NCBI GenBank assembly: GCA_963793425.1
Contig: CAWCAG010000001.1
Coordinates: forward strand, 57,455 to 121,454
DNA from: an uncultured cyanobacterium
GTDB lineage: Bacteria > Cyanobacteriota > Cyanobacteriia > Cyanobacteriales > CAWCAG01
DNA: 64,000 nt
Direction: 5' to 3'
The stretch's first letter is position 1; each line of letters opens with the position of its first letter. Below the pieces are notes generated by a model that was not told the DNA's origin, searched no databases, and was given only the letters and a program-made list of their open reading frames with translations. Both the position numbers and the translations under genes were made by a program. Below are positions 11,419 to 40,002 of the stretch, one piece after another.

Positions 11419-11470
11419 GGCTGGGGAGCTGGGGGGCTGGGGAGAAAACTAATGGCAACTAGCAACTAGC
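11419..11470. repeat. Composite intergenic repeat: GGCTGGG-type G-rich units followed by AACTAGC-type heptamers
   Basis: The sequence reads ggctggggagctggggggctggggag aaaactaatggcaactagcaactagcc. The same architecture occurs at 50464-50560. Confidence 0.8.
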
Positions 11471-14400
11471 CACGACAAAGATTATCCCGCAAACTCTTTT
11501 CTTGCTGTTTAACTGCTGCTAATAGTTCGGCGTGTTGAATAATTACCCCAGCTTGGGAGTTGAAAATATCCATATACTTTTCATCATTTTGGTCAAAGCT
11601 TGTACATAAATATTCCGGTATCTCTTCGTTGCCTTCCCTGTAGGGTTCAGCATAGTCTCCAAAGAGTTTCTTATTAACCAATTGAGTGACCCCAATCAAA
11701 TCCCCATCAGGATTCCAAACCGGAGTACAAAGTAAGCTACAGGTACGATAACCAGTCTTGCTATCGGTCTTTTTGGCAATTTCCGATTGGGGATGGGTGT
11801 ACAAATCAAAGGGGATATTCAAAGACTCTTTGGTTCGAGCAACAGAACCGGCATAACCAACTCCCACTTTAATCCGTAATTCTTTGAGAGAACCATCTTC
11901 AAAAGGAATTTTCGTCCACAATTCATTGCTACGGAGATCCAATAACCAAAGGGTGCTGCGGTCAGAGTTAATTAATTCTTTCGCTGCTTCCATAACTCGC
12001 TTGAGTATATCCTCTGGTTCTAGGGTACTTTGGTTAACAGAACGAGTAGCAGCCATTAAAGCAGCGGCTACCCTCTGCCCCCTAGCTGTTTTGTGGTAGG
12101 AACGGAAGCTTTCTAAAATCATTTGGATGAGGGGAACTTGGGAGGCAAAACGTTCTTCATCTTTAGGAGTGAATCCCTCTTGGTCAATTCTTGCTTCTAA
12201 AGGGGCATTTTGATCACTAAAACGTTTCAGTTTGTTGAGACATTGAACAACAGCAAATAAATCTCCTTGCTCGTTTAAAAGAGGGAAATTTAGCATACTG
12301 TAGGTACGATAGCCATTTTTACGATCTTGTTCTTTGGCTGTGAGGGAACGGGGGTCGTCGTAAAAATCGTAGGGAATATTCATAACTTTCTTGCTAGCAG
12401 CCACTTCCCCCACAATACCTTTGGTGATGGGAATGCGAATTTCTAGGGAGCGATCGCCTTCTGCTTGGGCGACAATTGACCAAAATTCATCTCTTTCTTC
12501 ATCAAGGAGGAAAATACTGGTACGATCTGCTTCAACAGATTTACCAAGTTTTTGAGAAATGGAACGCAAAGTAGAGTCCATAACTTCATCGAAACCCTGA
12601 CTTTCCATTACTTGGGTTAACATGGCTAAGGTTTGACTAACCACATTTTGGGGATTACCTTCTGCTTGTTCTTTCATGGCAGCGAATTTTTTGGCGTTTT
12701 GAATAGCGACCCCAACTTGAGAATTGAATATTTGCATATATTTTTGGGAGTTGGCATCGAAGCTTGCTTGAAAACATTCCGGTGCTTCTGGCCAGTCAAC
12801 AGGATTATATGTAGGAAAATTTCCTGGTTTCCTTTTATTTACGAGTTGAGTAACGCCAATTAGTTCCCCATCAGGACTCCAAACAGGCATACACAAGAGG
12901 CTACAGGTGCGATAACCGGTTTTTTGGTCGGTTTCTTGGGCTGTTTCGGAGTCTATATGGTTGTAGAGGTCAAAACCAATGTTTAAAGGCTCTTCTGTGG
13001 CAGCAACTTTCCCGGCATAACCTTGACCTACTTGTACTTCTAATTCCTTGACGCTACCATCTTCAAAAAGAATTTTTGTCCATAATTTGTCAGCTTCCCT
13101 GTCTAATAACCATAAAGTGCTACGGTCGGCATTCATCAATTTTTTAGCCGCATTCATAACATTGTGAATCACCTCATCGGAGTCGAGACTACTTTGGGAA
13201 ACGACTCGGGTAGCAAAGGTGAGGGCTTCGGAGGCTTGTAATCTTTGGGTTAATTTATAGCAGTATTGACATCTTTCAATGATTCGTAAAAGTTCTGGTG
13301 CATATTCACTAAATTGCTTTTGGTCAGCTTCGTTAAAACCTTCGCGATCAATACGATTAATTAAGGATTCAGTGGGATGATTGTTTTCTTCTAACTTGTT
13401 AATTAAGTTAACAACTGCAACTAATTTATTATGTTTATTTAATAAAGGGACAGCTAAAAGAGTATAGGTGGGATAACCTGTTTGTAAATCGACATTTTCC
13501 GGTTTTTCAAAGTTACTATCTTGGGCATAACCAAAAGGCACTTTGACCATCTCTTTTAAACTTGTAACCAAATCAACAATTTCGCGATTAGCACTAACTT
13601 CTACTTCAGAGCCAAAATAGTTACTTTGATTCCGGGCAATAATTGACCAAATTTCACTTTTTTCTTCATCAATTAAATAGATGTTAATGCGATCAACACA
13701 AAGCAAATCGCTCATTTTTAAGGTAATAGAACCTAAAATTTCATCGAGGATATAATCAAAGCCTTTCCCTTCCATAAAGTTAAGCATGGAGAGGAGTTTT
13801 TGCTCTTGTTTGGCTACTACTTGCATAAAGTCAGCGTGCAAATTAGCTAAAGCTTTATTAACCCAATTCCAATTGAATACAGCAGCATAAATGCGATTAT
13901 AAATACTTAAAATAGGGGTGGACTCTTTCTTCCCTAACCATCTTTTAACCACCAAACCAGAAAGCCGTAATTCCATTTGTTCAGGAGTTTCTTCAGCAGG
14001 AATTTCTCCTAAATTACTTTCTTCGGTAGCAGATTGGGCAGAAAGTAAAATTTGCTGATAAAGCTGCAAAAGAGGGCCACTCCTTTGACCAATTCTTAAG
14101 ATGCGATCGCGGATAGTTTTCAAATGAGGCGGATCATCAGTGGCTTCCCAGTTATCAATGATGCGTCTGCGGACGATATCTTCTACCCACCTAGCAATAT
14201 CACGACCATAAACATCTCCTTCATTTTCTACTTCTTGTAAGATTAAATAACAAATTTTTTGGGTTAAAAAAGGTTGTCCTCCAGTCCAATATAAAACCGC
14301 TTCTAATACTTCCTGGGGCTGACTAACTTTTCCTTCTAAACCTTTAGCTAAAGGTTGGGCTTCTGCTAAGTTGAAGCCATTTAATTCAATGCCACGACCA

Positions 14401-14996
14401 ATATTAAAAGGAGTACAAGTTTTATCTTGAATCAAATCCGAAGGAGTTGCTACCCCTAATAAAGCAAAAGTAAGGCGTTGATATTCAATACAAGCGCGGA
14501 TAAAAGCAAAAAAATCATCAGTACTAAAATTTAAGCTGAGAATACTATCAATTTCATCAATAAAAATAACAATTTTGCCCGGTACAGATTCTAATAAAAC
14601 CTGTTCAATAAACTCGCTTAAACGCTGTACCGGGGGGAGAAATTCTCTTTCTTTTAGCCAACGTTGCAGTTTGATGCGATCAGCTAATTTAAAATTCATG
14701 ACTAAGCGTCGCATCACCCCGGCATACCATTGTTCTGGGGTAATATCCTGGGAACCAATTTTAGTTAAATCAACAGCCCCACAAGCTACACCTTCTGCTT
14801 GCAAGCGGTGCATCGTCCTCACCCGCAAGCTAGTTTTACCCATTTGTCGCGAATTAAGAACGTAGCAAAATTCCCCTGCTTTTAACCCTTGATATAATTC
14901 CTGATCCGCTTGGCGTACCACATAAGTAGGAGCATCTAAATGTAGATGTCCACCAACTTTGTAGCTATAATTTAAGGTTCGCTCTTGACTTATCAT
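11466..14996 (-). CDS. AAA_35-like P-loop NTPase fused to four GAF domains
   Basis: 1176 aa. The N-terminal NTPase has Walker A RQMGKTSL, Walker [21 protein letters not shown] and GGQPFL. Four GAF-like units follow, each ending in ...NK(x19-24)Fxxx(D/S)(E/Q). Confidence 0.8.
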
Positions 14997-15110
14997 GGGT
15001 CATTTATCATTGTTGGCGTTTCGCGTAGTCTGGCGACAATGCTCCGCAAACGTGTAAACGTTGTCGTATTTACTATGCGTTGCCGTAGGCTAGCCTTGCG
15101 CCCTGGCTAC

Positions 15111-15138
15111 ATTAAACATTAAACGTTAAACATTTATC
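15111..15138. repeat. Heptamer tandem repeat (ATTAAAC-type)
   Basis: attaaac attaaac gttaaac atttatc, located in the spacer between the two NTPase genes. The reverse complement of the same unit occurs at 55158-55178. Confidence 0.75.
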
Positions 15139-15144
15139 AATTAA

Positions 15145-16977
15145 TTAATTTCCTAGGCGATCACTAAAATATTGACGATATAATTCAAAGCGGGGTGTTA
15201 CCTCATTTCCTTTTAAGTGGACTAAGCCGAGACTGTGTAACTTAAATGCTAGTACAGATTCCAACTCCACGGGTTTTCTCATTGTTACTACTTGACTTAA
15301 AGCCAGTGCCAACTCTGGATGTTGTTGTAAGTTCCAAAGGTGGCGACGCAAGTGATCTCCATAAATACCTGCTTCTGTAGGAGCAGTTTCTGATAGCTTT
15401 TTTAGGCTAAGCTGATGTTTAACTAGATGATAGAGAGCGACCTGTACTAGATAGGGATGTCCTCCCACAATATTCATCAACTGTTCCACTTGCTCTGAGT
15501 GCCAGTTAAGTCCGTAACGTTGAGCAAGATCAGCCACTTGAGGGTTAGTAAATTCCCTTAATTCAATGGGTAATCCTACATTAAAGGGGGATTGATTAAC
15601 ATTCAAGGGTAGATATACCTCTGTTGAATGTACTACCACTAACCTCAGCTTCTCCCAGAGATCGCTGTCACCATAACCATAGCCAGCCTCTTCGTACCAA
15701 GCCCTTAAAAGTCCGAAAAAGTCATCGGCTACTTTAGGATATTGAAAAACTCGGTCAACTTCATCTAAGCCTAAGACTAAAGGGCTATCAGCTTCTGGTA
15801 AAAGTAGATCCTCAAAAATGGCCGTGCAGTTATCTTTGCTGCCGTAGGTATCTGTCCAGTAATCATCTACTTTATAGGGTAAACGCAATTTACGGCAAAT
15901 TTTAGTACAAAACCAGCGTAGAAGCTGATTGAGGTTGGTGAATACTCCCTTATCTGCGTGTTGGAAGCTTAAGGGGACGGTACGATAGCCTTGTTCTTTG
16001 GCTTGGTAAAGAATTCTGGCCATTAAGGAAGTCTTACCCATTTGGCGTGGTGCTTTGAGGCGTATTAAAGCCCCTGGTTTAACAATTTCCTGGTAACATT
16101 GTTCTTCTCCAGGAACCCTTTTGACATAAAAAGCAGAAGCTAGGCGTACTTGTCCTTTGGGCAATTCTGGTTCAGCGACAGGTAAAGGAGGAGGAGTAGG
16201 AGTAGGGCTGAGATGATAAGTTGGAGTTGCTTCATCAATTAGGGGGAGACACCATCCCCCCTGACCAGACAAAATATTGCTAATCTCTTGGATAATACCA
16301 GGAGTATCTTCTGGCGATCGCCAATCTCTTTGATAAGTCCCTTGAAGGTATCTACGGAGGTCGTGGTTAAGGGGAACTGTAGGGGGACAGTTGATTCTTA
16401 CGGTAAGGATAATCGGTTTAGTTTGTAAATCTTTGTCTTTAGCTTGTCTCAACTCCTCAATTAACATTTCGCTTGTTGCTGCTTGGGGAGAAAGAAGGAG
16501 TAAAAAGTAATCACACTGTTCTAATTCTGAATCAATTTGTGCTAACCAGTTTTCCTCCGTTAAACCGACACTAGCCCTAAAAGCTTGGTGTCCTGCTGTT
16601 TCTAGGGCAGTGGCTAATTGGGTAGCTAGTTCATGATCTGGTTCTTGGTGCAAATAACTAAGGAATACTCGCTTAATCTTCTGGCTGGTTTCTTCCCTGC
16701 CCTCTTCTCCTTCCTCTTCCTGGCGTTTTAAAGCCCGTTCTAAGGCCCCTCTGATTCTCTTTTTTGTTACCTTTTCCCCCAAAGCATTGGAGAGTTTTTG
16801 CCATAATTTATAACCCACATACTTTTCGATGTATTGGGGATTGAGGGGGTAAATCTCTTCATAGGTTCGTCCTTGGCACGAACCGATAAAGACTTCCCTT
16901 TCGAGGTCATTAAGATGTTTACCAACTTTTTGATAAACTAAGCGATCTACTAATTCTAAACCTTGATCAAAATCCAT
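15145..16977 (-). CDS. HTH-like module + TIR domain + AAA_35-like P-loop NTPase
   Basis: The ATG at 16977 (MDFDQGLELV) is preferred over the TTG at 17043. The HTH-like segment is LNDLEREVFIGSCQGRTYEEI. The TIR-like segment is RVFLSYLHQEPDHELATQLATALETAGHQAF...CDYFLLLLSPQAATSEMLIEEL. The NTPase motifs are [28 protein letters not shown] and GGHPYL. Confidence 0.75.
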   Translation of the reverse strand: MDFDQGLELVDRLVYQKVGKHLNDLEREVFIGSCQGRTYEEIYPLNPQYIEKYVGYKLWQKLSNALGEKVTKKRIRGALERALKRQEEEGEEGREETSQKIKRVFLSYLHQEPDHELATQLATALETAGHQAFRASVGLTEENWLAQIDSELEQCDYFLLLLSPQAATSEMLIEELRQAKDKDLQTKPIILTVRINCPPTVPLNHDLRRYLQGTYQRDWRSPEDTPGIIQEISNILSGQGGWCLPLIDEATPTYHLSPTPTPPPLPVAEPELPKGQVRLASAFYVKRVPGEEQCYQEIVKPGALIRLKAPRQMGKTSLMARILYQAKEQGYRTVPLSFQHADKGVFTNLNQLLRWFCTKICRKLRLPYKVDDYWTDTYGSKDNCTAIFEDLLLPEADSPLVLGLDEVDRVFQYPKVADDFFGLLRAWYEEAGYGYGDSDLWEKLRLVVVHSTEVYLPLNVNQSPFNVGLPIELREFTNPQVADLAQRYGLNWHSEQVEQLMNIVGGHPYLVQVALYHLVKHQLSLKKLSETAPTEAGIYGDHLRRHLWNLQQHPELALALSQVVTMRKPVELESVLAFKLHSLGLVHLKGNEVTPRFELYRQYFSDRLGN

Positions 16978-17503
16978 ATATATACTGATAAGACTATGAT
17001 TGATTTTAATCTGAAATTCAAGATGAGGTAAGGGGTAAAGCAAGAATCAAGAGTAAGTTTTCTAGAGTTTTTACTTAAAAAAAATGAACATAATTACTAA
17101 TTGAATTAAGTGTTTATTCTTGAATTAATATTTTGGTTATCAGATCCTTTAAAATACTGATTCAGATCACAGCCAAGATACAGTTAATTATTTATTTTTT
17201 AGATATAGACTTTGGGGATATAAGTGCTTTCCTTAAGTTATTTTTTATTAAGTAGTAGCTAGTATGGGGTTTTATGAGGTCTGGAATAAAGATGGTTTTT
17301 GAGATGATTTTATAGCATTAACAAGAACTAAGAAACTTATGGTATTTCCTGGTTCTCCTCCCTCAAGTATTTAGTTAAAATTATATAAAGTAAGCAATAT
17401 TCAATCGTTGTTTAATTAATTAAGAAAAAACTGAAATAGTCAGAATCAACTTAGCTATTTCAACTGGATTGAAACAAAAGTAAAGTCCACCAGGTAAACA
17501 GAA

Positions 17504-18496
17504 ATGTTTAACTTAACTCAAGAAAGAATCGATAGCTGTGTGCGGCGTTTGCAAGGTGGTTACTTCCGTATTTACGGTAGTTCCAGGGCTGAATATGCTG
17601 AATTAATTGCTAGTGTAGCGAGGATTGGTTTAGACAATATTGCTCGTAGTGATGCTGCCTATCATGATGTAGATCATACTATTCTTGTTACCTTAGCCGG
17701 ACAAGAAATATTGCGAGGTAAACACATTCGCGAGGGTAATGTTTCTTGCGATAATTGGTTCCATTCGATTATTTCTTTGTTATGCCATGATATTGGTTAT
17801 ATAAAAGGAATTTGTCGTCAAGATAACCCTCAAGAAAAGTTGTTTGTCACAGGGAAAGATAGGGAAGCAATCACCTTAAAACCAGGGGCTACCGACGCGG
17901 CTTTGACTGATTACCATGTAGACAGGGGCAAACTATTTGTTGAAGAGAACTTTTCTGGTTATAAACTAATTGACATAGAAGTTATCAATGAAAACATTGA
18001 AATGACTCGTTTTCCTATTCCCCAAGCAGGAAAATATCAACAAACTAGTACCTATGCAGGCTTAGCTAGGGCGGCTGATTTAATCGGTCAATTGGCAGAT
18101 CCTCACTACTTGCAAAAAATGCCAGCTTTATTTTACGAGTTCTGGGAAAATGGTACTAGTGAAAAGCTAGGTCATCACCATCCAGGGGAGTTGCGTTCTG
18201 CTTATCCTAACTTCTTCAAAACTGTGGTTAGTCGCTATATTCAAGAGGCTTTGCATCACTTAGAAGTTACCAGACAAGGGCGAGAAATTATTGCTAGTTT
18301 GTATGAAAATGTTTGGGTTGTGGAAAATGAGTTAGAGAACAAAGGTGGTAACAGTTTGGGGCAACTCCCTCGAACCCTACCTTCTATACCTTCTGTAACC
18401 GATGTCGGTTCTATTCCGACCAAAGCTAACTTTTTCTCCAGTCAGGGCGGGCTGGGAAGCTGGTTGCATAAGTCCTTGCGTATTAGTCATGCCTGA
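17504..18496 (+). CDS. HD-domain metal-dependent phosphohydrolase family protein
   Basis: 330 aa. The H...HD...D pattern is present (AAYHDVDHTILV; LLCHDIGYIKG). Confidence 0.7.
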   Translation: MFNLTQERIDSCVRRLQGGYFRIYGSSRAEYAELIASVARIGLDNIARSDAAYHDVDHTILVTLAGQEILRGKHIREGNVSCDNWFHSIISLLCHDIGYIKGICRQDNPQEKLFVTGKDREAITLKPGATDAALTDYHVDRGKLFVEENFSGYKLIDIEVINENIEMTRFPIPQAGKYQQTSTYAGLARAADLIGQLADPHYLQKMPALFYEFWENGTSEKLGHHHPGELRSAYPNFFKTVVSRYIQEALHHLEVTRQGREIIASLYENVWVVENELENKGGNSLGQLPRTLPSIPSVTDVGSIPTKANFFSSQGGLGSWLHKSLRISHA

Positions 18497-19176: not shown

Positions 19177-19743
19177 GTGAAACTCTTTAGTTTTCTTGCT
19201 TTTAAGTTGTATCTTTCCTTGCTATCAATACTCAGAAAATTGTGGCATACAGTGGCACAATTCCAGTTTGTTTCTTCTCAACCTCCCCCAGGTAAGTCTG
19301 GGCTGTTGAGGTATTATCGTTATTGGTTGAAGCGTTTTTCTCGCTTAAAAGATAGTCCCAGGAGAATTGCACGGGGTTTGGCAGCAGGAGTGTTTACAGG
19401 TTGCTTTCCCCTGTTAGGTTTGCAAACTATTTTAGGTATTTTGGTAGCTTGGTTAATTAGAGGCAATAAAATTGCTGCCGCTGCGGGAACTTGGATTAGC
19501 AATCCTTTTACTTATTTTCCTATTTTTACCTTCAATTTTAGTATCGGTAGAATTATGACCAGGGGAGAAGATTTATCTTTAACTGATGTTCATTGGGAAA
19601 ACTGGTCAGAGTTATTAGATTTGGGGGCAACTTTTATTGCAACTTTAATGATTGGGTCTTTGTTAGTGGGTTTAATTGTTTCAATTTGTGCTTATTTTTT
19701 GAGTTTGTGGTTGTTGGTTAAGCTGCGAAAATCTGAAGATTAA
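19177..19743 (+). CDS. DUF2062-family membrane protein
   Basis: GTG start. The motifs are SPRRIARGLAAGVFTGCFPLLGLQTILGILVAWLIRGNK and NPFTYFPIFTF, and there is a C-terminal TM helix. Confidence 0.7.
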   Translation: MKLFSFLAFKLYLSLLSILRKLWHTVAQFQFVSSQPPPGKSGLLRYYRYWLKRFSRLKDSPRRIARGLAAGVFTGCFPLLGLQTILGILVAWLIRGNKIAAAAGTWISNPFTYFPIFTFNFSIGRIMTRGEDLSLTDVHWENWSELLDLGATFIATLMIGSLLVGLIVSICAYFLSLWLLVKLRKSED

Positions 19744-20248: not shown

Positions 20249-20276
20249 TTACTTATTGCTTATTACTTATTAGTTG
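20249..20276. repeat. Heptamer tandem repeat (TTACTTA-type) overlapping the 3' end of the DndE-like ORF
   Basis: ttactta ttgctta ttactta ttagttg. The same unit occurs at 60276-60317 and 62597-62652. Confidence 0.75.
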
Positions 20277-20666
20277 TTCTCCCCCCTGACAACATAGCTT
20301 AATCAAATCATCAATCTTTTTTAACTTAGGATCTCCTGCTAAATAACCAATACCACGATGTAAATGTAAGCGAAATTGACGGGCGAGAGTTTCTTGATCT
20401 GTACCTAAACCATCTTGATAGCAGCGTTGTTTTAAGGCCAAAATAAAAATATCAGACATTTGCCCAGAAAAGACTTGCCAAGTTAATTCGATATTACTAT
20501 CAGCAGGAATTGGTATGGGAGAAGGAATGCTTGCCTCAGCCAGGGAACGACAAAAGCCCCAGCGACATAAGACATTCCAATGTTCAATTTTAGTAATACG
20601 TTTGAGTTTAATTAATTGATCTCTAGCGGTATTTGATAATTTGATGTTGTTGAGAGGAGGTTTCAT
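20253..20666 (-). CDS. DndE-like protein (DNA sulfur-modification protein E family), orphan
   Basis: 137 aa. The pattern IKLSNTARDQLIKLKRITKIEHWNVLCRWGFCRSL ... FILALKQRCYQDGLG ... HLHRGIGYL matches the DndE layout as I remember it. No dndBCD genes are nearby. Confidence 0.55.
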   Translation of the reverse strand: MKPPLNNIKLSNTARDQLIKLKRITKIEHWNVLCRWGFCRSLAEASIPSPIPIPADSNIELTWQVFSGQMSDIFILALKQRCYQDGLGTDQETLARQFRLHLHRGIGYLAGDPKLKKIDDLIKLCCQGGEQLISNKQ

Positions 20667-30678: not shown

Positions 30679-33600
30679 ATGACTAATCTAACTGATAATT
30701 TGCTCCCCGACCTAATTGACATTCAGCGCTCCAGCTTTCGCTGGTTTTTAAAAGAAGGATTAATCGAAGAATTAAATAGTTTTTCTCCTATTACCGACTA
30801 TACAGGAAAATTAGAATTGCATTTTATTGGGGCTGAGTACAAACTCAAGCGACCAAAATATGATGTTGATGAAGCGAAGCGCCGGGACAGTACCTATGCA
30901 GTACAAATGTATGTCCCCACCCGCTTAATTAATAAAGAAACTGGAGAAATTAAAGAACAGGAAGTTTTTATCGGTGATTTACCCCTAATGACAGATAGGG
31001 GAACCTTCATCATCAACGGAGCAGAGCGAGTCATCGTCAACCAAATCGTGCGATCGCCTGGGGTTTACTACAAAGGAGAAACAGATAAAAACGGTCGCCG
31101 TACCTATTCTGCTTCTTTAATTCCTAACCGAGGGGCATGGTTAAAATTTGAAACCGATAAAAATGATTTAGTTTGGGTTCGCATCGACAAAACCCGCAAA
31201 CTTTCAGCCCAAGTACTCCTCAAAGCCTTGGGTTTAGCTGATAGCGAAATAATGGACGCATTGCGCCATCCCGACTATTACTACAAAACCTTAGAAAAAG
31301 AAGGTAATCCCACCGAAGAGGATGCCTTAATGGAGTTATATCGTAAACTTCGTCCTGGAGAACCTCCCACAGTCAACGGGGGTAAGGCGTTATTGGAATC
31401 ACGCTTTTTTGATCCCAAACGCTATGATTTAGGGCGAGTAGGGCGATACAAACTCAACAAAAAGCTACGCCTTAATGTACCTGATACCATGCGGGTACTG
31501 ACCTCCACCGATATTCTTTCTGCCATTGATTATCTCATCAACTTAGAATTTGACATTGGTAGCACCGACGACATTGACCACTTAGGCAATCGCCGAGTCC
31601 GTTCTGTAGGAGAATTACTCCAAAACCAAGTTAGGGTAGGACTAAATCGCCTAGAGCGCATCATCCGGGAGCGTATGACAGTATCAGAAGCAGATTCCCT
31701 TACCCCAGCTTCTTTGGTTAACCCCAAACCCTTAGTAGCTGCCATTAAGGAATTTTTTGGTTCCTCTCAACTCTCCCAGTTCATGGATCAAACCAATCCC
31801 CTCGCTGAGTTAACCCATAAGCGTCGTCTTAGTGCCTTAGGCCCAGGAGGCTTAACCAGGGAAAGGGCTGGATTTGCTGTCCGAGATATTCATCCTTCAC
31901 ACTACGGCCGTATTTGTCCTGTAGAAACTCCTGAAGGTCCCAATGCTGGCTTAATTGGTTCTTTAGCTACTTACGCTAGGGTTAACCAATACGGCTTTAT
32001 TGAAACTCCTTACTTCAGAGCCGTTGATGGGCGGGTGCTTAAAGACGAACCAGTAGCCTTTTTAACCGCTGACCAGGAAGACGATCAGAGGGTTGCTCCT
32101 GGAGATGTAGCTACAGACGAGGAAGGTTATATTTTGGGGGAAACCATTCCTGTACGCTATCGTCAAGAATTCTCCACCACCAGCCCAGAGCAAGTGGATT
32201 ACATAGCAGTTTCTCCCATGCAAATTGTCTCTGTAGCTACTAGCTTAATTCCTTTTTTAGAACACGACGATGCCAACCGAGCCTTAATGGGTTCTAATAT
32301 GCAACGCCAAGCTGTTCCTTTACTACGGCCAGAAAGACCTTTAGTCGGAACGGGATTGGAAGCCCAAGCAGCGAGAGACTCTGGAATGGTAGTGGTTTCT
32401 CGCACCCATGGCATTGTCACTCATTTAGATGCTGAACGAGTTAAGGTTAGGGTAACTCAACCAAATGGAGAACCTTTACCTCCTAATGAATCTCCTCAAG
32501 AACTAGAATATATCCTGCAAAAATACCAACGTTCTAACCAAGATACCTGCTTAAATCAGCGTCCTTTAGTTTATGAAGGAGAAGATGTCGTACCAGGACA
32601 GGTACTGGCTGATGGTTCCTCTACTGAAGGAGGGGAACTAGCTTTAGGGCAGAACGTACTAGTAGCCTATATGCCTTGGGAAGGTTACAACTACGAAGAT
32701 GCCATCCTGATTTCTGAACGTCTAGTGTACGACGATGTCTATACCAGCATTCACATCGAAAAGTACGAAATTGAGGCACGGCAGACCAAGCTAGGGCCAG
32801 AAGAAATAACCAGAGAAATTCCCAACGTCGGGGAAGATGGACTGCGCCACTTAGATGAGCGGGGGATCATTCGCATTGGCGCTTGGGTAGAAGCAGGAGA
32901 TATTTTAGTTGGAAAAGTAACTCCGAAAGGAGAATCAGACCAGCCTCCAGAAGAAAAACTCCTCAGAGCAATCTTTGGAGAAAAAGCTAGGGATGTGAGG
33001 GATAATTCCTTAAGAGTACCTAACGGTGAAAAAGGTCGCGTTGTAGACGTGCGGGTCTTTACTAGGGAACAAGGAGACGAACTGCCTCCTGGAGCCAACA
33101 TGGTGGTACGAGTTTATGTAGCCCAGAAACGAAAAATCCAAGTGGGAGACAAAATGGCAGGTCGCCACGGCAACAAAGGAATTATTTCCCGCATCCTTCC
33201 CATCGAAGATATGCCCTATCTCCCTGATGGCAAGCCCTTAGATATTGTTCTTAACCCATTAGGTGTACCTAGCCGTATGAATGTTGGCCAGGTCTTTGAA
33301 TGTCTCCTCGGTTGGGCGGGAGACAATTTAGGAGTCCGCTTTAAAATAACTCCCTTTGATGAGATGTATGGGGAAGAAGCTTCCCGCAATAGCGTCCATG
33401 GCAAACTTGCTGAAGCTACTAAAAGGCCGGGACGGGATTGGGTTTTTGACCCTGAAGAGCCAGGTAAAATCCAAGTTTACGATGGACGTACAGGAGAAGC
33501 ATTTGATCGCCCTGTAACCGTCGGTCGAGCTTATATGTTGAAATTAGTTCACCTCGTAGATGATAAGATCCACGCCCGTTCCACCGGTCCTTATTCCTTA

Positions 33601-34005
33601 GTCACTCAACAACCTTTGGGAGGTAAAGCTCAACAAGGGGGTCAGCGCTTTGGAGAAATGGAAGTATGGGCATTAGAAGCCTATGGAGCCGCATATACCT
33701 TGCAGGAACTATTAACAGTTAAATCTGATGATATGCAAGGTCGTAACGAAGCCCTTAACTCCATCGTTAAAGGTAAACCAATTCCCCGTCCGGGTACCCC
33801 AGAATCTTTCAAAGTCTTGATGCGAGAATTACAATCTTTAGGACTAGATATTGCAGTACATAAAGTAGAAACTGCCGAAGACGGAACCAGCCGCGATGTA
33901 GAAGTCGATCTTATGTCTGACTCAGAACGCCGCCGCGCCCCTAATCGTCCGACCTACGAATCCTTAACCAGGGAAGATATGCAAGAAGAAGGGGTAGATA
34001 GCTAA
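30679..34005 (+). CDS. rpoB: DNA-directed RNA polymerase subunit beta
   Basis: 1108 aa. Canonical beta motifs are present ([41 protein letters not shown]). Confidence 0.98.
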
Positions 34006-34091
34006 AAGCAAGTTGAAGAGTGGGAGGTTTTGGCGCTTATTAATCTCCCACCCCCAGTTACTAAATAACTAAACCACTAGTCACTAAAAGA

Positions 34092-35969
34092 ATGAGAAAC
34101 CAAGTAGAACAAAAATTCGACTATGTAAAAATTGGTATCGCTTCTCCAGAAAGAATTAGGCAATGGGGAGAGCGAACTTTACCTAATGGTCAAGTAGTGG
34201 GGGAAGTTACCAAACCAGAAACCATTAATTACCGGACATTAAAACCAGAAATGGACGGACTCTTTTGTGAGCGCATTTTTGGCCCAGCTAAAGATTGGGA
34301 ATGTCACTGCGGTAAATATAAACGGGTACGCCACCGAGGTATTGTTTGTGAACGTTGTGGTGTAGAAGTGACTGAAAGCCGGGTACGTCGCCATCGCATG
34401 GGCTACATCAAGCTAGCGGCCCCTGTTACCCACGTTTGGTATCTTAAAGGCATTCCTAGCTACCTAAGTATTCTCCTCGATATGCCCCTGCGAGATGTGG
34501 AGCAGATAGTTTATTTTAATGCTTATGTTGTACTAGATCCTGGTAATGCTAACAATCTTAACCACAAACAACTATTGACCGAAGACCAGTGGTTAGAAAT
34601 AGAAGAACAACTCTATGCTGAAGAAACTGAATTAGAAGGTATTGAAGTTGGCATTGGAGCCGAAGCAATTCAACGACTCTTAGAAGAAGTAAAACTTGAA
34701 GAAGTTGCTGAACAACTTAGAGAAGATATTGCCAACGCCAAAGGACAAAAACGAGCTAAATTAATCAAGCGGTTGCGAGTAATCGATAACTTTGTGGCCA
34801 CAGGCGCTCGTCCGGAATCAATGGTTCTTACCTACATTCCGGTCATTCCTCCCGATTTGCGTCCTATGGTGCAGTTAGATGGGGGCCGCTTTGCTACCTC
34901 TGACCTTAACGATTTGTATCGGCGGGTTATCAACCGGAATAATCGCTTGGCAAGGTTGCAAGAAATTCTTGCTCCGGAAATTATTGTCCGTAACGAAAAG
35001 CGGATGTTACAAGAGGCGGTAGATGCTCTCATTGATAATGGTCGTCGTGGTCGTACTGTAGTGGGAGCCAATAACCGCCCCTTAAAATCTCTCTCAGATA
35101 TCATCGAAGGTAAGCAAGGGCGCTTCCGCCAAAACCTCTTAGGTAAAAGGGTAGATTACTCTGGTCGTTCCGTAATTGTGGTGGGACCAAAGCTAAAAAT
35201 TTACCAATGTGGTTTGCCAAGGGAAATGGCTATCGAGTTATTCCAACCCTTCGTCATCCATCGTTTAATTCGTAGTGGGTTGGTTAACAACATCAAAGCA
35301 GCCAAAAAACTGATCCAAAGGGGTGATCCTAGTGTTTGGGATGTCCTTGAAGAAGTAATTGCTGGACACCCAGTACTCCTTAACCGCGCTCCTACCTTAC
35401 ACCGTCTGGGTATTCAATCCTTTGAACCGATCATCGTTGAAGGTCGAGCAATTCAACTCCATCCTTTAGTTTGTCCAGCTTTCAACGCTGACTTCGATGG
35501 AGACCAAATGGCTGTTCACGTTCCCCTCTCCTTAGAATCTCAAGCTGAGGCCAGACTACTGATGCTGGCTTGTCATAATATTCTCTCTCCTGCTACAGGA
35601 AGGCCCATTGTTGCACCTTCCCAAGATATGGTACTTGGTTGCTACTATCTCACGGCGGACAATCCTCAGTCCCAGAAAGGTGAAGGAAGCTATTATGGCA
35701 GCTTAGAAGATACTTTAAGGGCTTTTGAACAAGGAATTGTCCATATTCATGCCTATGTCTGGGTTCGCTACCAAGGGAAAGTGCAAACTGCTCAACCGGA
35801 CGACGAGGTTGTCTCTTCGGAAAAATTAGCCGATGGTACTGTGATGAAACATTATCGAGAAAGGCGAGTACGAGAAACAGCATCAGGAGAACAGTTATCC
35901 CAATTTATCCGCACAACCCCTGGTCGAATTATTTACAACAAAACAATCCAAGAAGCCTTAGCTGTTTAA
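34092..35969 (+). CDS. rpoC1: DNA-directed RNA polymerase subunit gamma (N-terminal part of the split beta')
   Basis: 625 aa with zinc-binding CHCGKY...CERCGVEV and the catalytic [12 protein letters not shown]. The split is characteristic of cyanobacteria and plastids. Confidence 0.98.
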
Positions 35970-36039
35970 GTCCTTCAGGTTTCTAGGAAAGAGTTTTAGA
36001 CAAAGCGATCGCCACCTAAATTTTGATAACCGAAAAAAA

Positions 36040-39000
36040 ATGAGTAAAGAACAAGTCTTTTTCAATCGTATTGTTGATAAGAAGCAACTCAAAAACTTAA
36101 TGGCCTGGGCTTATACAAATTATGGTAGTGCTAGCTCAGCTCAAATGGCAGACCTGCTAAAAGAAATGGGTTTTCGCTATGCTACCCGTGCAGGGGTATC
36201 TATTAGTATTGATGATTTGCAAGTACCGCCAGTTAAACGGAAGATGCTTGAAGAAGCTGAGGCGGAAATCAAAGTTACTGAATCTCGCTATTCTAAAGGG
36301 GAAATAACCGAAGTAGAGCGATTCCAAAAAGTAATTGATACTTGGAATAGTACTAGTGAAGCCCTTAAAGATGAAGTGGTAACCAACTTCCGTACCACTG
36401 ATCCTCTTAACTCTGTCTATATGATGGCCTTCTCTGGGGCGCGGGGCAATCTTTCCCAAGTGCGTCAGCTTGTGGGTATGCGAGGATTGATGGCAGATCC
36501 CCAAGGAGAAATCATTGACCTCCCCATTAAAACCAACTTCAGAGAAGGGCTAACGGTAACAGAATATATTATCTCTTCCTACGGCGCTCGCAAAGGTTTA
36601 GTGGATACGGCTCTACGTACTGCGGATTCTGGTTATTTGACCCGACGTTTAGTAGATGTATCTCAAGACGTAATTGTCAGGGAAATTGACTGCGGCACTC
36701 AACGAAGCATTGAAGCCACTAGTATGCGGGATGGTGAGAGGGTTTTGATCCCCCTTGGTCACAGACTCTTAGGTCGAGTTCTGGCTGAGGATGTAGTAGA
36801 CCCTGAAACAGGAGAGGTAATTGCTAAACGGAACAAAATCATCGACCAAGACTTATCAGAGAAAATTGGTGCTGTTACTGACGATGTGATGGTACGTTCT
36901 CCTTTAACCTGCGAAGCAGCTAGGTCTGTTTGCCAAACCTGTTATGGTTGGAGCCTAGCCCACGGCTACCCAGTGAATTTAGGAGAAGCCGTAGGGATTA
37001 TTGCGGCTCAATCCATTGGTGAACCAGGTACTCAGCTAACTATGCGTACCTTCCATACAGGAGGAGTATTCACAGGAGAAGTGGCTCAACAAATTCGCGC
37101 TCCTTTCTCTGGGAAAGTAGAAATTGGTAAAAAACTGCGTACCAGGGTAGTTCGTACTAACCATGGAGATGAGCGAGAGCAAGTAGAAGTGGCCGGAGAT
37201 TTGACAATCAAGCCTAGCTCTGGTGGCAAATCTGCTTCTAAAATATATAACTTAACCCCTGGCTCTAGGATTTGGGTCAAACATGGAGATACTGTTACTG
37301 AAGGGCAAATGCTAGTAGAACTAGCCGCCGGGAAAAAAGCTCGTTCTACCGAAAGAGCCGCTAAGAATGTAGCCTCCGACATGACAGGAGAAGTTCTCTT
37401 TGACAAACTCGCTGTAGAAGAAAAAACTGACCGCCAAGGCAATACAACCCGTAATGTGGTTAGAGGTGGCTTGCTTTGGGTATTGTCTGGAGAAGTATAT
37501 AACTTGCCTACTGGAGCAGAACCTGTAGTTAAAAATGGTGATGAAATCAATCCAGAAACGGTTATTGCTGAAACCAAGCTTTCCAGTGTAGCTGGGGGCA
37601 TAGTACGCCTTTCTAAGGAAGAAGACAATCGTAATATCGAAATTGTCAACTCCTCAGTTCAACTCGACGACGGTATTGTCCGACGAGAAAGTAATGGTGG
37701 TCGAGAGCAATATGTCATTGAAACAGAGGATGGTCAGCGCTATCTCCTCAAAGCTACTCCAGGAGCCAAAATTGCTGATCAGCAAATTATCGGCGAACTC
37801 ATTGACGAACGCTACCATACCAATACCGGAGGTATGGTCAAATACGCAGGTATAGAGGTAGGGAAGAAAAGCAAAGGCAAGCCAGGCTATGAAGTCATTC
37901 AAGGGGGAACTTTAGTTTGGATACCGGAAGAGTGTCACGAAGTTAACAAAGATATCTCCCTATTGCAAGTTGAAGATGGTCAGTATGTAGAAGGAGGAAC
38001 TGAAGTAGTTAAAGATGTCTTTTGTCAAACCTCTGGAGTCGTTGAGGTTGTTCAAAAAAATGATATTCTTCGGGAAATTGTCATTAAACCAGGGGATCTT
38101 CATCTCATTGAAGGGGACATACCCAGCGATGCTGAACCTAGATTAGTTCAAGCGGGAGAAGAGGTTATTCCTGGGGTTGTATCATCGGAATTACGTTATG
38201 CAGACTACCTGGAAACTCCATCAGGAGCAGCCTTACTCTTACGTCCGGTAGTAGAATATACTATCACCAATGAACCGGAAACTCCCAAAACCAGCTCCCT
38301 CAACCAACAAGTTAATCGAGAAATTCAACTAGCTGCTGTACAACGGCTATTCTACAAAGATGGAGAACGGGTCAAGTCTGTAGAAGGTTTAGAGCTAATG
38401 CGGACTCAGCTAGTCTTAGAAATTGGGCATCAGGAAAACGAAGAAAAACTAGACCGCGCCAACCTTGCTGCGGACTTAGAATTAGTCCCTATTAGTGACA
38501 ATGAGGAAGATATAGACCAATACAGCTTACAGCTAGTTTGTATAGAAACTTTGGTTTTGAGGCGTGATCGCTCTAACGAGCCCCATAGTGGTGGTACGAA
38601 AAACCGCCTCCTCGTTAAAGATGGGGATGAAATAACTCCTGGTGCTGTCGTTGCCCGTACAGAAATTCAATGTAAAGAAGCCGGAGAAGTACGAGGTATC
38701 AGAGAAGGGGTAGAAGCTATTCGCCGGGTTTTGGTAGTTCGCGATGGCGATCGCATCACTATTCCTGTAGAAGGGGAAACAAAAGTCAAAAAAGGTGACC
38801 TTCTTGTCGCAGGTAGTGAGCTTGCCAGTGGCATTTACAGTGAAGACTCTGGACAAGTTGTCAAGGTTGAACCATCACAAGTGACTCTTCGTCTGGCCCG
38901 TCCTTATCGGGTTTCTCCAGGTGCAGTACTGCACATTGATGACGGAGATTTAGTCCAGCGTGGTGATCACTTAGTGCTGTTGGTTTTTGAAAGGGCCAAA

Positions 39001-40002
39001 ACTGGAGATATTATCCAAGGTTTACCTCGTATTGAAGAACTGCTTGAAGGACGCAAACCCAAAGAAGGGTGTATTCTTGCTCGTCTACCTGGGGTAGCCC
39101 AAGTGGTTTATGATGAGGACGATGTGGTGGATGTGAAAGTAATTGAAGAAGATGGCACTATTGCTGACTATCCCCTACGCCCTGGTCAAAATGCCCTCGT
39201 CAGTGATGGACAGCAAGTACAAACTGGTACTCCTTTAACAGACGGACCAGCTAATCCCCATGAAATTTTAGAGATTTTCTTTAACTATCATCTTGAAGAA
39301 CATGGGGTTTATGAAGCAGCTTTATTGGGTTTACAACAGGCTCAAGCCTTTTTGGTTAATGAGGTTCAGTCAGTATACCAATCCCAAGGCATTGACATTT
39401 CTGATAAGCACATTGAAGTTATTGTCCGCCAGATGACTTCTAAGGTAAGAGTTGATGATGGAGGTGATACCACCACCCTACCTGGAGAATTGGTGGAACT
39501 GCGCCAAATTGAGCAAGTTAACGAAGCCATGTCCATCACTGGTAGCGCACCAGCCCGCTATACTCCAGTCTTGTTAGGCATCACCAAAGCTTCTTTAAAT
39601 ACCGATAGCTTCATCTCAGCAGCTTCTTTCCAGGAAACCACCAGGGTTCTAACCGAAGCTGCTATTGAAGGCAAATCTGACTGGCTGAGAGGTTTGAAAG
39701 AAAATGTGATTATCGGACGCTTAATCCCTGCTGGTACGGGTTTCAATCAACATAGCGATGACTCCCTTACTCCACCTATGGAAACAGACCAAAGTATTGC
39801 TAGTGCAGCAGCTTATCCCTTTGGTAGCGTAGGAGATGGAGGAGCTAATATAGGCAACCAAGATCCTCTGGATGTGGTTCTTGATGACCGTACAGCCCGT
39901 GCTTACACTCGTTCTGAACGTCCTTTTTCTCAAGAGGGTTTCAATCCTGTAATTGATGATGAGAATATCGGCAGTTCGGGTTGGAATACTCCGTCGGAGT
40001 AA
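36040..40002 (+). CDS. rpoC2: DNA-directed RNA polymerase subunit beta' (C-terminal part, with the large cyanobacterial insertion)
   Basis: 1320 aa. Motifs are MAFSGARGN and [17 protein letters not shown], and the gene order is rpoB-rpoC1-rpoC2. Confidence 0.98.

Follow-up and report, generated by a model that had tools for sequence, protein, structure and literature searches.

The subject of this analysis is a 64,000-nucleotide (nt) stretch of DNA from an uncultured cyanobacterium (contig CAWCAG010000001.1), hereafter the window. Near-identical cluster members point to an origin in Spirulinaceae. We focused on two adjacent genes of the minus strand. The upstream gene, A, encodes a helix-turn-helix (HTH) domain, a Toll/interleukin-1 receptor (TIR) domain and an AAA_35-type P-loop NTPase. 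The downstream gene, B, encodes a related NTPase followed by four GAF domains. A third gene, encoding an HD metalloprotein, is divergent from A. We propose, tentatively and with somewhat less than even confidence, that the three genes form a conserved hetero-oligomeric switch gated by cyclic AMP (cAMP). The switch would resemble a split STAND or NLR protein, with the TIR and HTH domains of A as its output and the HD protein as a possible reset. The original prediction, made from the sequence of this DNA, had described A and B as a candidate nucleotide-signalling or conflict system. The two co-directional open reading frames (ORFs) that it reported are present (15145-17043 and 11466-14996, both minus strand), as is the 148-nt spacer between them (14997-15144).

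Gene B (11466-14996, minus strand) encodes 1176 amino acids (aa) and is the putative sensor half of the pair. Pfam identifies an AAA_35 module of a divergent sub-family (3.8e-22, 79 bits, model positions 4-246 of 331) and four GAF stretches (1.4e-47). No Pfam domain follows GAF4. The architecture first suggested for B, a paralogous NTPase and four GAF domains with nothing after them, is thus upheld. The GAF domains form two tandems, delimited by phmmer comparison with Protein Data Bank (PDB) entry 1YKD. This entry is the cAMP-bound GAF-A/GAF-B tandem of the Anabaena adenylyl cyclase CyaB2. The first tandem (12654-13799, minus strand) comprises GAF1 (aa 400-590) and GAF2 (aa 591-781). The second (11469-12653, minus strand) comprises GAF3 (aa 782-978) and GAF4 (aa 979-1176). 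The order alternates A-type, B-type, A-type, B-type. Residues 613-1075 of B match 1YKD with an E-value of 1e-168 and 58-64% identity: 64% over 169 aa for GAF2 (residues 613-781) and 58% over 288 aa for residues 784-1075. The next PDB matches are the GAF domains of the phosphodiesterases PDE5, PDE2 and PDE10.

In the GAF-B domain of CyaB2, cAMP is contacted by R291, T293, I308 and D356 (PMC4411481). When these contacts were mapped onto B, the Arg and Asp were found in all four GAF domains. The Thr is kept in GAF2 and GAF4, and is Ser in GAF3 and Asn in GAF1. Briefly, GAF2 retains R625, T627, I642 and D690, GAF3 has R825 and S827, and GAF4 has R1013, T1015, I1030 and D1078. GAF1 is the most divergent, with N438 at the Thr position and GYPT for GYRT. 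GAF3 and GAF4 have a complete NKFDE motif, and GAF1 and GAF2 a partial one. All 13 B orthologues compared carry the contact Arg in GAF2-4, with Thr or Ser two positions later (13/13). Because the GAF domains are homologous to the CyaB2 tandem and retain its contact residues, we strongly infer that B binds 3',5'-cAMP. The earlier suggestion that the GAF array senses a small molecule can be sharpened accordingly to a predicted CyaB2-type cAMP sensor. The module nominates B as a conserved candidate cAMP receptor, and the TIR and HTH domains of A as its candidate output.

The NTPase module of B occupies aa 1-390 (13827-14996, minus strand), as defined by invariant motifs and a structure model. It contains Walker A (SRQMGKTSL) and Walker B (IVIFIDEID) motifs, in which K54, T55, D147 and E148 are invariant, and the further motifs TPFNIG and GGQPFL. 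The AAA_35 module of A (aa 273-605; 15163-16161, minus strand) matches PF14516 over model positions 2-330 of 331 (8.5e-150, 498.6 bits; gathering score 27 bits). Its Walker A motif, PRQMGKTSL, is invariant in 26 of 26 orthologues. So are D405-E406 and D408 of its Walker B motif (LVLGLDEVD) and the signature motifs NQSPFNVGLPIEL and GGHPYL. Both proteins, therefore, have an invariant Walker A and an invariant Walker B Asp-Glu pair. The two modules share 24% identity over 284 aa (E 3e-15). By sequence, they are paralogous and anciently diverged; at only 24% identity, they are not a recent duplication. No NB-ARC, NACHT, nSTAND or other STAND profile of Pfam matched A or B, and NPHP3_N and AAA_16 matched below threshold only.

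Predicted structures of both proteins were compared with known ones, with whole-chain template modelling (TM) scores so low (0.15-0.36) that the matches place the fold class only. The B NTPase model (m8eb32404d513), with a predicted local distance difference test (pLDDT) score of 73.7, matched ORC1/Cdc6, the archaeal ATPases 2qen and 2fna, the NLR proteins NRC2/3/4 and Sr35, and NOD2. In terms of fold class, the model points to an AAA+ fold like that of ORC1/Cdc6 and NLR proteins, which includes a winged-helix region. For the whole-A model (pLDDT 72.5), the best match was the TIR-NB-ARC resistosome core of RPP1 (E 9e-9).

The longest ORF for gene A runs from 15145 to 17043 and encodes 632 aa from a TTG codon. 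We placed the start by orthologue alignment. Translation almost certainly starts from the ATG at 16977, and the predicted product of 610 aa begins MDFDQG. Gene A (15145-16977, minus strand) is the putative effector or executor half of the pair. The ORF, Pfam and the architecture of orthologues agree on HTH_VMAP-M9, TIR_2 and AAA_35 domains, matching the HTH, TIR and P-loop NTPase modules originally read from the sequence. Orthologues share 60-93% identity and identical architecture. The N-terminal HTH (aa 1-93; 16699-16977, minus strand) is assigned to HTH_VMAP-M9 (PF26355). This call was carried over from Pfam annotations of the orthologues: the domain is annotated in a 93%-identical orthologue and in all others (P0121, L080, L081 and L085-L087 among them). 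The region is entirely helical in the predicted model (pLDDT 80-90).

The TIR domain of A (aa ~102-236; 16270-16674, minus strand) is supported by Pfam TIR_2 (3e-15, 57.2 bits; cut-off 28), profile alignments and Foldseek. Foldseek matched the TIR model to SARM1 (TMt 0.70-0.72), RUN1, L6, RPS4, BtTir and the SPARTA TIRs. Single-sequence and full-length-profile searches of A against the PDB were uninformative, and a TIR-only profile was used instead. In the profile alignments, SEMLIEEL, the putative catalytic helix of A, aligns to SDWCWDEL and STWCLEEL of the Cat1 and Roq1 TIRs. E174 and E175 of this motif are encoded at nt 16453-16458. By the same alignments, E175 of the window protein occupies the canonical catalytic position. 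We take this position to be the Glu in the helix after strand beta-C, numbered E86 in Roq1 and E642 in SARM1. Residues S163, S169, E170, E174 and L176 are invariant across orders. Since E175 is Glu in 19 of 26 A orthologues and E174 is invariant in all 26, catalytic competence of the TIR is plausible on sequence grounds.

We then considered the pairing of A and B. The sample comprised 21 loci with a four-GAF B orthologue: 15 from a scan of species-representative genomes, five look-ups and the window. In 18 of the 21, B is preceded on its own strand by an A orthologue. Hence, the proposed synteny of the two genes is borne out. The A-B loci span Spirulinaceae, Coleofasciculaceae, Oscillatoriales, Leptolyngbyaceae, Pleurocapsales and Nostocaceae. 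The gap between the genes is no more than 150 nt in 13 of the 18 paired loci, with inserts of 0.95-3.7 kb in the remaining five. In every case, the genes flanking the pair differ from genome to genome. The adjacency of A and B is very unlikely to be due to chance. More than 120 full-length B orthologues were found (61-98% identity). For A and for B alike, more than 120 full-length homologues share ~60-70% identity; they occur in Coleofasciculus, Microcoleus, Oscillatoria, Leptolyngbyaceae, Planktothrix, Lyngbya, Pleurocapsales and others.

The pair belongs to a wider family of cassettes. We sampled 79 scanned loci, ranked by similarity to B. Most match only the first ~390 residues of B (55-61% identity) and are paralogues with other C-termini. 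In at least 47 paralogous cassettes of this sample, an A-type AAA_35 gene ends no more than 1.2 kb upstream of a B-type gene on the same strand, and stop and start codons frequently overlap. The paralogous B-type proteins match AAA_35 at full length. The A-type N-termini are TIR_2 (23 of 49), CHAT (11), Pkinase (7) or Trypsin_2 (5), besides HTH domains and one nucleotide cyclase. They join the NTPase via a conserved linker, PLPVAEPELPxG. The B-type C-termini are WD40 in about 33 of 62 proteins, and also include GAF, CHASE2, Peripla_BP_6 and TPR. From this division of domains between A-type N-termini and B-type C-termini, we read A as an effector-NTPase and B as an NTPase-sensor.

Distances among A-type modules correlate with those among B-type modules across cassettes (Mantel r 0.65, a value reached in 0 of 2000 permutations). 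Natural fusions also occur. P0447 and P0486 are A-to-B fusions, P0425 is a B-to-A fusion, and the single chain P0401 consists of a TIR, an A-type module, a B-type module and a C-terminal region. The fusions, the overlapping stop and start codons and the co-diversification of the modules lend support to the earlier proposal that A and B could co-assemble through their shared NTPase. They also bear on the simplest alternative: that A and B are independent AAA_35 paralogues, adjacent by chance or simple tandem duplication. The original prediction had allowed for such a coincidence. AAA_35-type proteins are indeed abundant in cyanobacteria, with 10,471 representatives at 50% identity for the B-type module profile alone, and three B orthologues have no nearby A gene. 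However, order and strand are kept in 18 of 21 loci despite varying flanks, and the 47 paralogous cassettes have the same polarity. Together with the co-diversification and the fusions, these findings make coincidence or simple duplication extremely improbable.

Other arrangements of the family were recorded. Single chains with B-B tandems (P0377, P0379, P0380, P0386, P0402, P0423 and P0438) continue in some cases with WD40, TPR or PAS, and A-B-B gene arrays occur at L023, L033 and L038. One cassette (L088, 4752-10088) is carried by a 39-kb mobilisable MOBP plasmid of Tolypothrix sp. PCC 7601, where an A-type gene precedes a B-type gene with a 9-nt gap. It adjoins genes for a patatin-like phospholipase and an AraC regulator. 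GenBank labels both genes of this cassette only as 'AAA-like domain-containing protein'.

The third gene (17504-18496, plus strand) was missed by the original prediction. It encodes a 330-aa HD metalloprotein of the Npun_R2479 family, identified by the NCBIfam equivalog NF045583 (4e-128, 426.4 bits; cut-off 400), and its orthologues carry Pfam PF28239. The gene lies divergently beside A in 15 of 17 assessable orthologous loci. When its profile was compared with the PDB, PDE10A catalytic sites were the sole matches, with YHNxxH...CHD metal-site motifs and an E-value (~0.4) below statistical significance. Pfam and a single-sequence PDB search gave no PDEase_I or other phosphodiesterase match. 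The HD protein is thus a weak candidate for the nucleotide phosphohydrolase of the module. We rejected the HD gene as an obligate partner, since it stands alone in three other genomes. The window HD protein has a C-terminus ~45-60 aa longer than its orthologues. In Leptolyngbyaceae JSC-12 (L080, 2252-4509), the HD gene is split in two by an insertion with a DDE_5 transposase, and A and B are intact. The third gene seems to have been knocked out naturally there.

Possible sources of cAMP lie close to several related cassettes. Class III cyclases, either CyaB-like proteins (GAF-GAF-PAS-cyclase) or other types, adjoin the cassettes at L014, L018, L056 and L081. In Coleofasciculus, a CHASE3-PAS-cyclase gene sits beside the A, B and HD trio, and at L023 an A-type protein has a cyclase fused ahead of its TIR. 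The 64-kb window itself contains no nucleotide cyclase. At L014 (7016-9472, minus strand) and L018 (6871-9402, minus strand), the gene for a CyaB-like GAF-GAF-PAS-adenylyl cyclase is divergent to a cassette of an HTH-like plus AAA_35 gene and an NTPase plus four-GAF gene. This arrangement suggests a self-contained locus that produces and senses cAMP.

A mechanism can be proposed from these observations. As homology strongly suggests, 3',5'-cAMP would bind the two CyaB2-type GAF-A/GAF-B tandems of B. By analogy with GAF-regulated cyclases and phosphodiesterases, binding would free or activate the N-terminal ORC/Cdc6-like ATPase of B. The conserved operon, the fusions and the co-diversification of the modules suggest that the activated ATPase would co-oligomerise, in an ATP-dependent manner, with the AAA_35 module of A. 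If general TIR and NLR biology applies, co-assembly would cluster the TIR domains of A, leading to NAD+ cleavage or an NAD-derived signal, and would also alter the action of HTH_VMAP-M9 on DNA. Finally, the divergent HD metalloprotein could conceivably hydrolyse a nucleotide, either cAMP or the TIR product, and so reset the system. The module would probably answer endogenous cAMP signals with a metabolic or cell-fate response together with a transcriptional one, mostly in filamentous cyanobacteria. Recognition of a phage component is less likely.

Several observations weigh against a cAMP-gated switch with a catalytic TIR output. Seven of 26 A orthologues have Q, K, T or V instead of E175, and Met, Ile or Leu takes the place of the Trp of the SxWC motif in A TIRs. 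Because E175 is variable, with only E174 of the pair invariant, and the SxWC Trp is replaced, the TIR may be non-canonical or non-catalytic. What had been predicted of the TIR stands for the above-threshold profile match and for the Glu of the window protein, and is qualified by the variation of this residue in those seven orthologues. GAF-type B proteins of the sister cassettes L014, L018, L053 and L057 pair with HTH-only A proteins. These are HTH-like plus AAA_35 proteins without a TIR at L014 and L018, and XRE-type HTH plus AAA_35 proteins at L053 and L057. Because sister GAF sensors have such TIR-less partners, the output may be at least partly, and perhaps at its core, DNA binding. Three of the 21 B loci (L001, L007 and L015) have no A gene within 6-10 kb. 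The HD family occurs alone in Tolypothrix, Kamptonema and Desertifilum, and the likeness of the HD protein to phosphodiesterases is not statistically significant. The models of A and B are of moderate quality (pLDDT ~73), with the low TM-scores given above. Ranking the sampled loci by similarity to B may also slightly favour those that hold an A-type module as well.

Some of these points would fit a cAMP-responsive transcription-factor complex. Here, B would load or remodel A on DNA via HTH_VMAP-M9, in the manner of ORC/Cdc6, the TIR would be a non-catalytic oligomerisation scaffold and the HD gene would be a likely target. An HTH is the constant N-terminal feature of the A partners of GAF-type sensors (L014, L018, L053 and L057), and the canonical TIR Glu varies among orthologues. 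The best match of the B NTPase is to the DNA-binding ORC1/Cdc6 initiators. A and B are highly conserved in housekeeping surroundings, and A and the HD gene have a conserved divergent intergenic region in common. However, the invariance of S163, S169, E170, E174 and L176 across orders suggests that the TIR is more than a scaffold. The HTH+TIR+AAA_35 architecture recurs in other cassettes with a second, unrelated HTH (Sigma70_r4), and most A-type proteins carry enzymatic effectors rather than an HTH. We consider a purely transcriptional complex unlikely, and retain the cAMP-gated switch as the preferred reading.

A role in phage defence was also assessed. In an abortive infection of the NLR/Avs or Pycsar type, phage would raise a cyclic nucleotide, B would sense it and the A TIR, acting as an NADase, would drain NAD+, so that the cell dies or arrests. 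The wider family has hallmarks of conflict systems, namely interchangeable effectors (TIR, CHAT, trypsin and kinase) and sensors (WD40 and TPR). There are many cassette paralogues per genome. Paralogous cassettes also occur on 56 cyanobacterial plasmids, one of them mobilisable with an A-to-B cassette. By fold, the A TIR most resembles the NADase TIRs from SARM1, plant NLRs and SPARTA, and the module may be functionally analogous to the TIR effectors of Pycsar, which are activated by cyclic nucleotide monophosphates. In Lusitaniella, restriction-modification-like and PIN genes lie downstream of the pair.

The evidence from the orthologue group itself points the other way. PADLOC recognised no known defence system in the window, with weak TIR-level matches for A (ThsB and SAVED_TIR models) and none for B or the HD protein. 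Thoeris, CBASS TIR-SAVED, Pycsar and Avs are unsupported, as their partner genes are absent. The orthologue group is chromosomal, and the neighbours of A and B in the window are M16 peptidases, mltG, tsaB, a histidine kinase, hisD and rpoB/C1/C2. Sequence identity across orders is 60-70% for both A and B, and the ligand pocket is conserved rather than diversifying. The GAF domains of B match an endogenous cAMP sensor, the window has no cyclase and no homologue of the cassette was found in 50,697 phage records. Abortive infection is, on balance, improbable. For this orthologue group, the conflict or defence role first suggested finds no mark of phage defence, given the PADLOC result, the housekeeping neighbours and the conservation across orders.

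Defence-island context was likewise rejected for the window, where the neighbours are housekeeping genes and the sole defence-like one is an orphan DndE-like ORF. This ORF (20253-20666, minus strand; Pfam DndE 3.6e-43, PADLOC DndE 2.6e-15) lies ~1.8 kb from the HD gene. Among ORFs of at least 80 aa between 8 and 21 kb, none of its neighbours resembles dndB, C or D, although no DndB/C/D profile search was made. A 188-aa membrane-like ORF (19177-19743, plus strand) gave a sub-threshold NCBIfam match to 'T4SS effector BspA' (79.7 bits; cut-off 300) and is probably a generic DUF2062-type protein. The window has a GC content of ~40%. It is locally raised (0.44-0.47) because the rpoB-rpoC1-rpoC2 operon lies there (30679-40002, plus strand), ~12 kb from the HD gene. 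The locus of Lusitaniella coriacea LEGE 07157 (L086, 9644-13605) has GIY-YIG, Methylase_S (type I restriction-modification specificity) and PIN genes downstream of A and B. Such defence-like surroundings set this locus apart from the rest, and it has no HD gene.

The non-coding DNA around the genes was scanned for repeats, folds, promoters and terminators. The A-B spacer (14997-15144, minus strand) had been described as filled with repeats. It holds one 7-nt tandem, ACATTAA (3.7 copies, 15109-15134). Its predicted fold is no better than that of shuffled sequence (z 0.34), and a consensus scan of its coding strand found no terminator-like or sigma-70-like site. The spacer is compatible with co-transcription of A and B; in most orthologous loci the gap is 14-26 nt. 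We rejected a repeat-based regulatory element, given a single short heptamer tandem and no significant fold, terminator or promoter. A terminator-like hairpin was called by consensus scan over the stop codon of B (11455-11473, minus strand). Beyond this stop codon (11420-11470) are the octamer GCTGGGGA (3.1 copies) and the heptamer GCAACTA (2.3 copies), the latter entering the coding end of B by 5 nt. Short tandem repeats thus follow the stop codons of both A and B and resemble cyanobacterial short tandem repeats. The region between A and the HD gene (16978-17503, 526 nt) is AT-rich and presumably holds the promoters of both genes. A consensus promoter scan of this region called none. The divergent arrangement is conserved across orthologous loci.

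Bacterial TIR domains have been studied almost only as phage-defence effectors. If our reading is correct, a conserved chromosomal TIR would be gated by an endogenous second messenger. This would widen the role of TIR domains to physiology or programmed cell fate in multicellular bacteria. To our knowledge, no bacterial system has been described in which cAMP signalling is wired directly to TIR/NAD+ chemistry. In the searchable literature, we found no paper on PF14516, only unrelated results for the term AAA_35, and no description of an AAA_35 effector/sensor cassette or a cAMP-GAF-TIR module. The 2020 eLife conflict-systems paper and the 2026 Nature STAND survey contain no mention of AAA_35 or of GAF-coupled or paired cassettes.

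The closest precedents for sensing are CyaB1 and CyaB2 of Anabaena. GAF1-2 and GAF3-4 of B are two copies of their GAF-A/GAF-B tandem (58-64% identity). The Arg, Thr, Ile and Asp residues that contact cAMP are kept, and GAF3 and GAF4 each have the full NKFDE motif. Unlike the CyaB proteins, whose output is a C-terminal PAS-cyclase, B has an N-terminal ORC/STAND-like ATPase and a duplicated tandem. Pycsar (PycC and PycTIR), Thoeris (ThsB and ThsA) and CBASS TIR-SAVED similarly combine a nucleotide second messenger with a bacterial TIR. However, the window contains no ThsA, SAVED, CAP_ED domain or cyclase, and predicted GAF sensing resides on a separate NTPase protein.

Two systems described by comparative genomics share parts of the layout. 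In the VMAP/iSTAND ternary systems (Kaur et al. 2020, eLife; PMC7159879), TIR, caspase-like/CHAT and trypsin domains also stand N-terminal to an NTPase-type core. VMAP systems gave the HTH_VMAP-M9 domain its name, and both groups are enriched in filamentous cyanobacteria. In contrast, the A/B module has no MoxR or vWA partner and its NTPases are predicted to be active. That paper (PMC7159879) mentions neither AAA_35 nor an effector-NTPase/NTPase-sensor gene pair. The nSTAND2 systems are two-gene operons whose products both have STAND NTPase cores and would, by prediction, assemble into a toroidal hetero-multimer (Kaur, Iyer, Burroughs & Aravind 2021, eLife; PMC8195603). One NTPase has eroded NTP-binding motifs and carries GT4/HEPN effectors, and the operon is described as mobile (PMC8195603). 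The likeness lies in two adjacent genes, each with a STAND-type NTPase core. Unlike nSTAND2, A and B both keep Walker A and Walker B, with TIR, CHAT, kinase, trypsin or HTH domains as effectors on the first gene and the sensors on the second. We therefore regard nSTAND2 as a conceptual precedent and reject membership, since both Walker sets are intact and the effector is HTH+TIR.

In its logic, the module is closest to plant TIR-NLRs and paired or helper NLRs (RPP1 and Roq1; RRS1/RPS4; NRC) and to bacterial STAND/Avs and bNACHT receptors. These have parts of the same kinds, namely a TIR effector, an oligomerising P-loop module and a sensor. The best match of the A model is the TIR-NB-ARC of RPP1, and the B model matches NRC2/3/4, Sr35 and NOD2, which suggests a similar fold class. 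A sensor/executor split over two side-by-side paralogous NTPase genes resembles genetically paired plant NLRs. However, the NTPase here is AAA_35 rather than NB-ARC or NACHT, with no detectable sequence similarity and low TM-scores. The effector-NOD-sensor chain is divided between two genes, each NTPase apparently active from its motifs, and single chains of the P0401 type are rare. The predicted ligand is a second messenger, not a pathogen protein. It is conceivable, though more doubtful than the switch itself, that cyanobacteria hold a large undescribed 'split NLR' family. The window would then represent its cAMP-sensing branch, with TIR+HTH output and a dedicated HD/PDE-like reset enzyme. 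The two-gene layout of effector-NTPase and NTPase-sensor, with more than 10,000 sensor-side representatives as well as fusions, would be a bacterial counterpart of sensor/helper NLR pairs.

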